A DNA stretch of 64,000 bases from an uncultured Methylomirabilota bacterium (lineage in GTDB: Bacteria > Methylomirabilota > Methylomirabilia > Methylomirabilales > 2-02-FULL-66-22): assembly GCA_963845565.1 (NCBI GenBank), contig CAWJSJ010000002.1, positions 1,632,001 through 1,696,000 on the forward strand, in the 5' to 3' direction. Position numbers: made by a program. How positions within the stretch are numbered: position 1 is the stretch's first letter; each line of letters starts with the position of its first letter. Positions 15,001-18,000 of this stretch are shown here, one piece after another.

Positions 15001-18000
15001 ATCGATGTCCTGCACCCGCAGCCGCAGGCATTCCATCAGGCGCAACCCTGCGCCGTACATGAGGGAGGCCATGAGCCGCTTATCGCCGGTCATGCTCGCC
15101 AGCACGGCCTTCACTTCCTCGCGGGTCATCACGACGGGCAGGCGCGTCGGCTTGCGCGCGCGGATGACTTTGCCCAGATCGCCCAGGTTGCGCCTGATCA
15201 CGTGGCGATAGAGAAACAGCAGCGCCGACAGCGCCTGGTTCTGGGTCGAGGCGCTGACCTTCTCCTTGACGGCCAGGTGTGTCAAGAAGGCGTTGATCTC
15301 GGGCTCGGCCATTTCGCCGGGGTGGCGCACGTTGTGGAAGAAGATGAAGCGCTTGACCCAGTGGCAATAGGCCTGCTCGGTCCGTCGGCTGTAATGGCGA
15401 GCGTGCAGGGCCTCGCCCAGGCGGTCTAGCAGCTTGGGGTGTCGGCCCGCGGGATGGAGGGTGTCGGAACCAGACGGATGGCCAGGGAGGGAAACAGGGA
15501 CCGGGTTGCGGTTTGGGATTGTCCCATGGGAAAGCGGGGCGGCGCCTGTCGATTCCGGGAGCGTTGCTGGCGGCGGGAGTGTGCCGGCCGGGCGGCTCGC
15601 ACGATTCGGCGGGAACGGACGCGTCGGCTCCGAGGCGCGATTTGTGGCGGGGAAATCACTGTGGGTCGAGCCCATCCGCCCACCTCCGTCGCCCGTTCCA
15701 AGATGCTGAGTACCGCCGCAAGCTATTGCAGGTTTTCCAAATCCGCCAAGTCCTGGTGCCGACCGGACGCTTGTTTGTTCTTCTTGAGGTTGTCCAGGTC
15801 GATGAAGTTCACGCGCACTCCATCAACTTCGACCTCGATCCGCGAGGCGTAGCAGCTTGCGAAGTCAACACCGGGAAGGGTGGTCAGTATGTCTATGCGA
15901 CTTGGCGGATATCCCAGCTGGATGATCTGATCGGCCACAAGAAAATCCGACGCCAGCAGCCCGAGGGATCCGAATCCGAATTGATCGAGCGCCTTGACGA
16001 CGCTGGCGGCATTGTCCGGCTCTAGAGCGACCCAGACCTCCATGTCCTTGGTGTAGCGGGGATGGCCATGGAGCGCAACGGCATACCCGCCGACGACCAG
16101 GTACAGAACGCGGTTATCGTTGAACGATTGAATAAACTCTCTGAAGTCCGGGTTCAGCACCGTACCTCCAGCGATGGTATTCTTGCCGAATCTCCTCCAA
16201 TGCAGCCAACCGTACATGATAGGGCTGGGTCCGCCAGTAGGCGAGGTCGCTGCTGTGCTCGCGAAGGCCGACCTTCGCGTACACCTTCTCGATACGCCGA
16301 GTCTTCTCCATGTCCGATTTCATCACCCGTCCGCGTGCGGCCCCTGATCTGTGCACATCGTCTCACTCAGCGGCGCGAAATGATCTCTGCTTGCACCTCT
16401 CCATGCCGGTTCACAACTTCCGCAAGATGCCGACGACCTTCCCGACGATCTGGAAGCTCTTCTCGTTCTTCTTCACCTGGATCGGCGCCATGGCAGGGTT
16501 TTCCGGCTGAAGGACGATGCCGTCCGGGCGGAAGAGGATGCGCTTGATGGTGGCCTCGTCGTTCAGCAGGGCGACGACGATGTCGCCGGTCTCGGCGGTG
16601 GACTGCCGACGGACGAGGGCCTGGTCGCCGGGGCAGATGTGGGCGCCGATCATGCTGTCGCCCTGCACCTTCAAGAGGAATGCCTCGTCACCGTTCACCC
16701 AGTCCTGCGGGACCACGGAGGTCCCTTCGAGGTTCTGGTCCGACAGCAGGGGTTGGCCGGCGGCGACGCGGCCCAGGATAGGGAGTTCGCGGTACGACGG
16801 TGAGCCGAGAGCCGAGAGCCGAGAGCCGAGAGCCGAGCGCGGAGACTCGGGGCCTACAATGGGTGCGGGATCGAGGATCTGGAGCGAGCGCGACTTGGAT
16901 GCGGTGCGCCGCAGGTAACCCTTGCGCTCCAGCGCCTTGAGGTGGTCGAAGATGCTCCGTGGCACGAAGCCGAAATGCGCGCCGATCTCCCGCACGGTGG
17001 GCGGGTAGCCGGCCTTCGCCAGGAACTGCCGGATGAACTCCAGGACCTCGCCTTGCCGGGCCGTGAGCGGTGGGAGCATGGACTGTCTCCTAATGAGAAT
17101 CACATTTACCATACGGGTGTATGGTCGGTCAAGGAGTTTGCGCGGGAGGAGAGAGGAATAGCTGGCAGCGGGGCAGTTGGCAGTTGGCAGAGGACTGACC
17201 AGGGACAGGGAAAAACAGCAGGCAGGTGGCAGCGGGCAGCTGGCAGAGAACAAAGAACAGCGGGCAGCGAACGAGGAGCGGCTGGACGCGGGCGGCGGCG
17301 CAAAGGGCAAACACCGAACGCTATGCGCCACGCGCCACGCGCTTAGCGCAGAACGCCGAACCCTATGCTCCATGCGCACAACGTCGTGCGCTGACTGCTG
17401 ATCGCAGACCGCTGTCCCATGGAACTGAAACGTTTCAGATTTCGCTTGACACCGACAAGGCGTCTTGACTATGTTCTCGGCACCCTGTGGGAGACCATCT
17501 CCAGGGTGCCCGCCGCGGTCCTCCAGCGTTCTCCGGTGCACGGCCGACCGGGGCGGATGTTGTCCGCGGGATTGAAACGTTTCAAGGTGAGGAGCGGGCG
17601 CGGGTGGTCACGATCAAGGACGTCGCGCGGGAGGCTGGGGTGTCGGTCGGCACCGCCTCGCAGGCGCTGCGGGAAAGCCCCGCGGTCCGGGACGCGACGC
17701 GACGCCGGGTCCAGGTGGTCGCCAAGCGCCTCCGCTACCAACCCAGCGCCCTGGCCCGGGGCCTGGTGACCCGCCGCACCCACACCGTCGGCCTGCTCAT
17801 CTCCGACATTGCCAACCCGTTCTTCATCCGGGCGGTCCGCGCCATCGAAGACGTGGCGCAGGGGAACGGCTACAACGTCATCCTGTGCAACACCGACGAG
17901 GACGCGGCCAAGGAAACCCAGTATCTCCGGGTCCTCATGGAGAAGCGGGTGGACGGGATCATCCTGGCCACCACGGCCGGCAGCCGCCAGATGGTGCGGG

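Follow-up and report, generated by a model that had tools for sequence, protein, structure and literature searches.

Predicted LexA operator and predicted small, mutagenesis-centred SOS regulon lacking recA in a lineage of Methylomirabilota

LexA1 of Leptospira interrogans recognises a 16 nt palindrome, CTnnAC-N4-GTnnAG, established by ChIP-seq and EMSA, and its regulon includes recA and recN (PMC4756842). Boxes of similar layout, in which two hexamers flank a 4 nt spacer around an AC-N4-GT core, are described for Myxococcus xanthus (CTRHAMRYBYGTTCAGS, present at recA2 and lexA), for Gram-positive bacteria (CGAACRnRYGTTYC, with recA in the core regulon) and for cyanobacteria (RGTACnnnDGTWCB; Table 5 of PMC2248561, PMC9705874). 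In total, 17 LexA motifs had been counted by 2021 (PMC8565304). In Geobacter sulfurreducens and Bdellovibrio bacteriovorus, LexA reportedly neither binds the recA promoter nor represses the canonical SOS genes. Two further systems concern possible targets. The prokaryotic PolB2 mutasome, iRadA-PPB2-PolB2, consists of the Rad51-like iRadA, PPB2 with an MGRT motif and a B-family polymerase; bacterial polB2 neighbourhoods are reportedly enriched in lexA, and the consulted portion of the paper gives this linkage and no operator (PMC11791011). A survey that looked for 15 motifs at integron integrases detected none but the E. coli-type box (PMC3108266).

A palindrome of this general kind, CCAWAC-N4-GTWTGG, recurs in the genome of an uncultured member of the Methylomirabilales (NC10), here G000, one of the 21 genomes in the genus set. 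The preliminary description presented it as a new SOS box, which is an overstatement: it falls within the AC-N4-GT family, and a single base pair separates it from the Leptospira LexA1 box. The two have in common the 16 nt length, the 4 nt spacer, C1, the AC-N4-GT core and G16 (PMC4756842), but all five G000 sites differ in having C and G at positions 2 and 15, and AW is fixed at positions 3-4. The spellings found in sister lineages (CTATAC/GTATAG, CTAAAC/GTATAG and CTCAAC/GTTGAG) are exact matches to the Leptospira box; the likeness is one of box letters, and the predicted regulon of the genus, unlike that of Leptospira, is without recA. The Myxococcus left arm likewise accepts CTATAC and CTAAAC, and its bias towards a purine at the start and a pyrimidine at the end of the spacer is common to the genus box, whereas the outer bases CCAW and WTGG differ from those of the Myxococcus, Gram-positive and cyanobacterial boxes. 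The letters of the Geobacter and Bdellovibrio boxes, GGTT-N10-AACC and TTAC-N3-GTAA, are unrelated (PMC8565304), and the LexA motifs of Balneolaeota and Bacteroidetes also differ (PMC7739468, PMC8565304). The exact spelling was not found in a literature search that fell short of most subscription papers, RegPrecise/CollecTF and supplements, which may list the box; nor did the search find any work on LexA in Methylomirabilota. The palindrome is very probably a real, functional LexA operator, a variant spelling of a known site type.

The window, the whole stretch of 64,000 nt that was analysed, holds the copy at lexA. Here the predicted operator, CCATAC-GGGT-GTATGG (17109..17124, assigned to neither strand), fills the spacer of the lexA promoter on the minus strand. 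The -35 hexamer TTGACC (17127..17132, minus strand) lies 2 nt from it, a geometry common to 12 of 12 lexA sites, and a putative -10, TAAATG, which is without the T at -7 (17103..17108, minus strand), abuts the end of the operator, whose closing TGG could provide the TG of an extended -10. A Shine-Dalgarno sequence, AGGAG (17087..17091, minus strand), stands 7 nt ahead of the lexA ATG at 17079; the CDS (16411..17079, minus strand) encodes 222 aa. The RNA runs found consist of contigs that share no more than 0.23 of the words, and they cannot show transcript starts.

The encoded protein matches TIGR00498 at 198.9 bits (cut-off 110.95), and both the winged helix-turn-helix domain PF01726 and the S24 domain PF00717 are above cut-off. 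Alignment to solved LexA structures shows that the Ala-Gly cleavage site and the Ser/Lys dyad are intact; the gene is the sole S24 peptidase gene in G000, and its nearest relatives carry titles naming Methylomirabilis, Methylomirabilales or Methylomirabilota. Compared with E. coli LexA, the recognition-helix turn is short by one residue, a feature also present in the best PDB match, 3k2z. At 222 aa the protein is longer than most relatives (213-215 aa), and a GAGCCGA heptamer repeated five times within the gene (16802-16836) gives it a longer inter-domain linker. In one relative, G017, lexA is split over frames, as are dnaE2 and dnaE in G000. Going by known LexA biology, a LexA dimer on the box between -35 and -10 would block RNA polymerase; on DNA damage, RecA filaments would prompt LexA to cleave itself at the Ala-Gly bond, and the promoters would open.

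Immediately 3' of lexA is an 80 aa ORF (16114..16356, minus strand), for which a Pfam search gave no match and which is possibly co-transcribed with lexA, followed on the same strand by a DUF6036 nucleotidyltransferase-like ORF slightly below the Pfam cut-off (15723..16217) and an integron integrase (14485..15675, minus strand; TIGR02249, 482 bits) that probably starts near 15450. This pairing of a small ORF with a nucleotidyltransferase-like gene between lexA and intI, all on one strand, recurs in G008 and G009, and in none of the three loci does intI have a box of its own; in the window it may be controlled via read-through out of the lexA promoter. The lexA-intI stretch (14485-16411) holds two terminator-like matches, which is the chance level, and one of them is on the coding strand. 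Beyond the integrase, a scan with the attC grammar found a clear attC-type site (12471-12531, minus strand) after a 463 aa ORF, and a nucleotidyltransferase/HepT-like pair (11623-12280) follows this site.

All five exact sites listed in the preliminary description for G000 were recovered at precisely the coordinates given there, against about 0.19 expected per spacer from half-site counts; spacers of 0 to 12 nt other than 4 gave 0-1 matches each. Sites with one mismatch are at background (13 at a spacer of 4, 7-18 at other spacers), hence the signal is confined to exact sites; eight of eight one-mismatch sites, including one at 31033 in the window, lie outside promoter geometry, and they are treated as chance. 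The distances to start codons (29 nt for lexA, 75 nt for a gene encoding a 96 aa protein and 118 nt for imuA) are close to the 35-140 nt first reported, and the start of the radical-SAM gene lies 59-134 nt from its box. The fifth site, at C2:1152972, had been flagged from the outset as having no gene start within 350 nt. It follows a gene read as ParE-like and makes up the inner hairpin in a stretch that matches the attC grammar exactly (background 0.09 per 11 kb), whilst the minimum-energy fold around it differs from the attC fold; sitting in an attC-like structure, it is probably not an operator. Weight-matrix and relaxed scans of G000 returned the four boxed promoters and a two-mismatch site before an intI remnant (C2:2007105).

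As the motif was picked after the fact, the control across genomes matters. The exact pattern is present in all 21 genomes of the genus, with 1-6 sites each and 69 in total, as against five in total for the reversed control. Of these 69 sites, all of which were read, 64 have promoter geometry: in most cases a TTGACA-like hexamer lies 1-2 nt upstream and TA follows immediately, so that the box fills a 17-18 nt spacer; at three intI promoters the overlap is with the -10. The recurrence of the box ahead of lexA, the 96 aa gene, the radical-SAM gene and integron integrases was borne out by this census. The downstream gene is that for the 96 aa protein at 20 sites (in 19 genomes), lexA at 12, iRadA at 11, polB2 at five, imuA and intI at four each and the radical-SAM gene at three, or 59 of the 69 in all, and every one of the 12 lexA genes in the genus carries the box over its promoter. 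The remaining five sites in promoter geometry comprise two at contig ends, one each ahead of a TnpB-like gene and an intI remnant, and one at an aldo-keto reductase gene that sits 3 kb upstream of polB2; the TnpB/Cas12f-like gene is on contig C63 of G016. The five without promoter geometry are treated as chance or attC. Outside the genus the pattern is present, as previously claimed, but near background, being found in 26 of 230 genomes compared with 21 of 230 for the control (counted from a per-genome table); G038 and G039 are exceptions. Three unpublished genomes (G216, G033 and G043) were counted solely in the totals for sites, polB2 and lexA matches, and none of the conclusions rests on them. 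Genomes of a single genus are not independent of one another.

That LexA is the likely binder follows from the palindrome at the lexA promoter changing with the LexA lineage. The helix type of the window, GFVPRS[VI]FDHL, pairs with CYATAC/GTATRG in 15 of 15 cases, and the Desulfobacterota-type LexA, with an IYPRA helix, pairs with CTAAAC/GTATAG in 38 of 39; for the Rokubacteria type, a script assigned NTCAAC/GTTGAS in 11 of 15 and reading by eye added three, the last being truncated. From one lineage to another, the two arms vary in concert. One genome, G046, has three lexA paralogues with three different palindromes (CTGT-N8-ACAG-like, CTCAAC/GTTGAG and TGCAC-N4-GTGCA) at the same promoter position, and is in effect a natural specificity experiment, whilst the E. 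coli-like LexA of G040 carries CTGT-N8-ACAG, serving as an internal positive control. A tree of 60 selected LexA proteins has a supported clade for each main spelling, with its deep branches unresolved, and along it the spelling passes from CT/AG in family f4 through a mixture in f3 to CC/GG in f1. There is no simple helix code, given that the same spelling is found ahead of lexA at four other loci (L266, L275, L289 and L321) where the LexA helices are quite different.

Nine of the 20 other genus assemblies keep boxes with no lexA match, more than their completeness figures predict. These assemblies are scattered over the recA tree; lacI, the neighbour of lexA, is likewise without a match at E 1e-90 in seven of the nine and has only a distant one in an eighth; one has a lexA-type site 25 nt from a contig end; and lexA adjoins an integron in three genomes. 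All of this favours assembly gaps, which are a likelier cause of the missing lexA genes than loss.

The absence of lexA matches from these nine assemblies could also suit a different dimeric regulator, such as a CsoR-type metal repressor, a WYL protein or the 96 aa protein itself, the gene for which is boxed in 19 of 21 genomes; two WYL genes are present in G000, and CsoR-type operators, judged by gene context, resemble the relaxed box at three of 13 T-type genus sites and at several matches in a GTDB-wide scan. We regard such a binder as unlikely. Among the 69 strict sites, 59 precede SOS-type or 96 aa genes and not one was attributed to a copper gene, whilst in G046 the palindrome tracks LexA paralogues inside one genome. 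The 96 aa protein, for its part, is modelled as three long helices (pLDDT 77) with no helix-turn-helix and no PDB match, and although 222 homologues were found, all those with a taxon name are from NC10, whereas the box spans many phyla.

It is harder still to see the motif as promoter sequence, a conserved spacer or extended -10 kept by descent or sigma factor preference. The right arm does end in TGG just ahead of TA, fitting an extended -10, and the box promoters of the genus are mostly without a T at -7 (it is present in only three of the 40 with a 17 nt spacer; genome-wide in G000, it is present at 254 of 417 TTGAC-N18-TA sites). Yet the left arm, which has no promoter role, mirrors the right; the two change together between lineages, with the variants ending in TAG and GAG losing the TG; and the box stands before non-homologous genes. 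These points make the promoter reading extremely improbable. A proposal that the TGG end compensates for the missing T at -7 found no support outside the genus, where this T is present in 18 of 26 promoters with TGG and 26 of 41 with TAG (p = 0.79). We therefore retain, with a probability of about 0.88, the reading predicted from enrichment, position and covariation: that the palindrome is the operator of the single LexA repressor of this lineage, with the consensus CYAWAC-N4-GTWTRG and a small, mutagenesis-centred regulon that would not include recA or uvrA.

This working consensus, mostly CC...GG in the genus, is broader than the spelling initially put forward. The LexA operator reading of the preliminary description stands as the most likely one, but its claim that the spelling is specific to the family does not: T-type half-sites occur both in the genus and in sister families with the same recognition helix, and the same spelling lies ahead of lexA in records from Thermodesulfobacteriota, Spirochaetota and Bdellovibrionota. 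Within single genomes of f3 and f4, which have this helix, C and T are mixed at position 2, and the f4 lexA promoters are T-type at both arms; in G000 none of the five sites has T at position 2 or A at position 15. A further 13 genus sites have one T-type arm. Six of these are in promoter geometry, before two intI genes, an intI-like fragment, an unassigned ORF, a mug and radical-SAM locus and iRadA-PPB2, and three are CsoR/copper look-alikes next to csoR or copper genes. For the relaxed box, a scan across GTDB that required promoter geometry and had no background control returned at least 115 stretches from many phyla, and among the matches listed about 39 of 115 precede, on our reading, SOS-type genes (lexA, recA/imuA-like, iRadA, dinB-like, dnaE2-like, DUF72, radical-SAM, 96 aa and intI), including at least 13 lexA genes and at least one recA; 46 of 104 ORFs were scanned against Pfam. 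The same scan also caught CsoR/copper operators.

Several other repeated or lineage-specific palindromes were encountered. Five Dormiibacterota/Chloroflexi loci (L316, L318, L336, L339 and L346) have CCAAAC-N4-GTTTGG promoters at DUF222-type genes, 12 nt from the start, and in Poribacteria an identical promoter with CTATAC-ACAT-GTATAG is repeated at several places (L264, L280, L288 and L293). The lexA-promoter palindrome is GATAAC-N4-GTTATC in f2 (L215-L217), where lexA lies just upstream of polB2, and is of a TAGT...ACTA type in f7 (L209-L213, L218). The Rokubacteria box, TCAAC-N4-GTTGA (f9 and f10; L249-L254), has only 1-3 sites per genome; it is ahead of lexA in at least four of five genomes, and one copy precedes two small uncharacterised genes that form a pair.

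Within the genus, the predicted regulon is small: lexA, one error-prone polymerase system, the radical-SAM gene, the 96 aa protein and some integron integrases. The box recurs before genes for damage tolerance (imuA, iRadA, polB2, radical-SAM and mug-like), and the preliminary description, in naming the imuA cassette, had missed the main members, iRadA-PPB2 and polB2. Boxed imuA is found in G000, G009, G014 and G016; these four also hold dnaE2 matches, above cut-off in two and split or partial in two, and none has polB2. The latter is present in 13 of the 20 relatives and absent from G000, and four genomes have neither polB2 nor imuA. Mutual exclusion of ImuABC (four genomes) and an archaeal-type PolB2 mutasome (13) is only suggested by this distribution, as it reflects few independent events in incomplete assemblies. 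In G000, dnaE2 (C2:1132622-1135750) is split over frames, but so is the essential replicative dnaE (C4:117272-119696), and both are probably assembly indels. The relatives encode iRadA, PPB2 with its N-terminal MGRT and PolB2, the last assigned to its subfamily by context and PF00136 and not by a tree. The parts are thus those of the described mutasome (PMC11791011), but polB2 is split off: in the genus loci read, it is apart from iRadA-PPB2 and the separate parts are often boxed individually, the contiguous order was not encountered, and a radical-SAM gene comes after PPB2. G000 differs in having ImuABC instead.

The box before the radical-SAM gene is upheld, whilst the label 'Rv2578c-type' attached to that gene is approximate, as the Rv2578c and PA0069 models score alike and below cut-off (for the G010 orthologue, NF038135 gives 251.8 against a cut-off of 430 bits, and the PA0069 model 253.1 against 360). 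The 96 aa protein had no family or fold match in Pfam, NCBIfam, ESM Atlas or Foldseek/PDB, and homology to PPB2 was considered and rejected (hhalign probability 0.2%). Since nearly every genome has the box before its gene, the protein is a candidate core SOS effector. The box occurs in five of the 17 intI upstream regions, scanned over 600 nt, once with a mismatch; boxed intI sites in G006 and G022 lie just outside this set, and three other intI genes are co-oriented downstream of lexA, as in the window. No E. coli-type box was found in the intI upstream regions scanned. Hence, although a box over the intI promoter is common to the described systems (PMC3108266) and to the genus, the box in the genus is not of the E. 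coli type.

The canonical SOS trait of recA and uvrA under the box is not found in the genus. All 21 recA upstream regions, three of them shortened by contig ends, are without it, the best weight-matrix score being 6.1 compared with a training minimum of 19.0. In G000, a site at an operon leader has not been missed, since recA heads its operon, is served by its own promoter and has a divergently oriented gene upstream. The box was present in none of the 15 uvrA upstream regions scanned (21 genomes have uvrA), nor was it at recA in 13 sampled genomes of f2, f3, f4, f7, f8, f9 and f10, in which operon leaders were not followed. The exclusion of recA asserted earlier thus holds in the genus but has precedents in Geobacter and Bdellovibrio, and it does not extend to the sister family f5, where in two of two genomes recA follows lexA in an operon behind boxes.

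The recA promoters have a conserved feature of their own: in 21 of 21 genus genomes (L155-L175) the spacer is kept as an imperfect palindrome, TGAYTTC-N6-RAAATCA, over the -35, with flanks that are not kept. The G000 copy (C1:1024883-1024903) is unique in that genome, at 47 bits with the next match at 23. A search with this pattern written with N6, where N7 was meant, missed the recA promoters, and the nine of its 20 matches examined had no gene in common. Such strong conservation, along with the tolerance of Leptospira LexA1 for degenerate sites in the consulted parts of PMC4756842 and PMC3789691, might suggest that LexA binds the box and yet holds recA in its regulon through this non-canonical site. 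We consider this very unlikely: unlike the box, the recA spacer is without an AC-N4-GT core. A comparable RAAAT element was seen in f3, f7 and one f2 genome; the f7 and f2 copies lie at recA promoters in genomes where LexA goes with other boxes, so that the element does not track LexA. It is possibly the site of a non-LexA regulator.

Taken together, these observations could describe an SOS regulon confined to mutagenesis, in which two unrelated error-prone machines, bacterial ImuABC and an archaeal-type PolB2 mutasome divided among operons with boxes of their own, interchange, integrases are controlled via a box that is not of the E. coli type, the 96 aa protein, an orphan of NC10, is a core SOS effector and a separate regulator of recA reads TGAYTTC-N6-RAAATCA, the relaxed box being widespread and unlisted in many uncultured phyla; we offer this composite tentatively, at somewhat below even odds. 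The type of switch is ordinary, and the content of the regulon is of more interest than the motif. On the literature searched, it is a first predicted SOS regulon for a Methylomirabilota lineage, and provides a prediction, at the level of the operator, that LexA represses bacterial PolB2 mutasomes, as well as a case that runs against the view that integron integrases require an E. coli-type box for SOS control. The stepwise change from CTATAC/GTATAG through CCATAC/GTATAG to CCATAC/GTATGG under an unchanged recognition helix may also be useful for testing how LexA specificity drifts.
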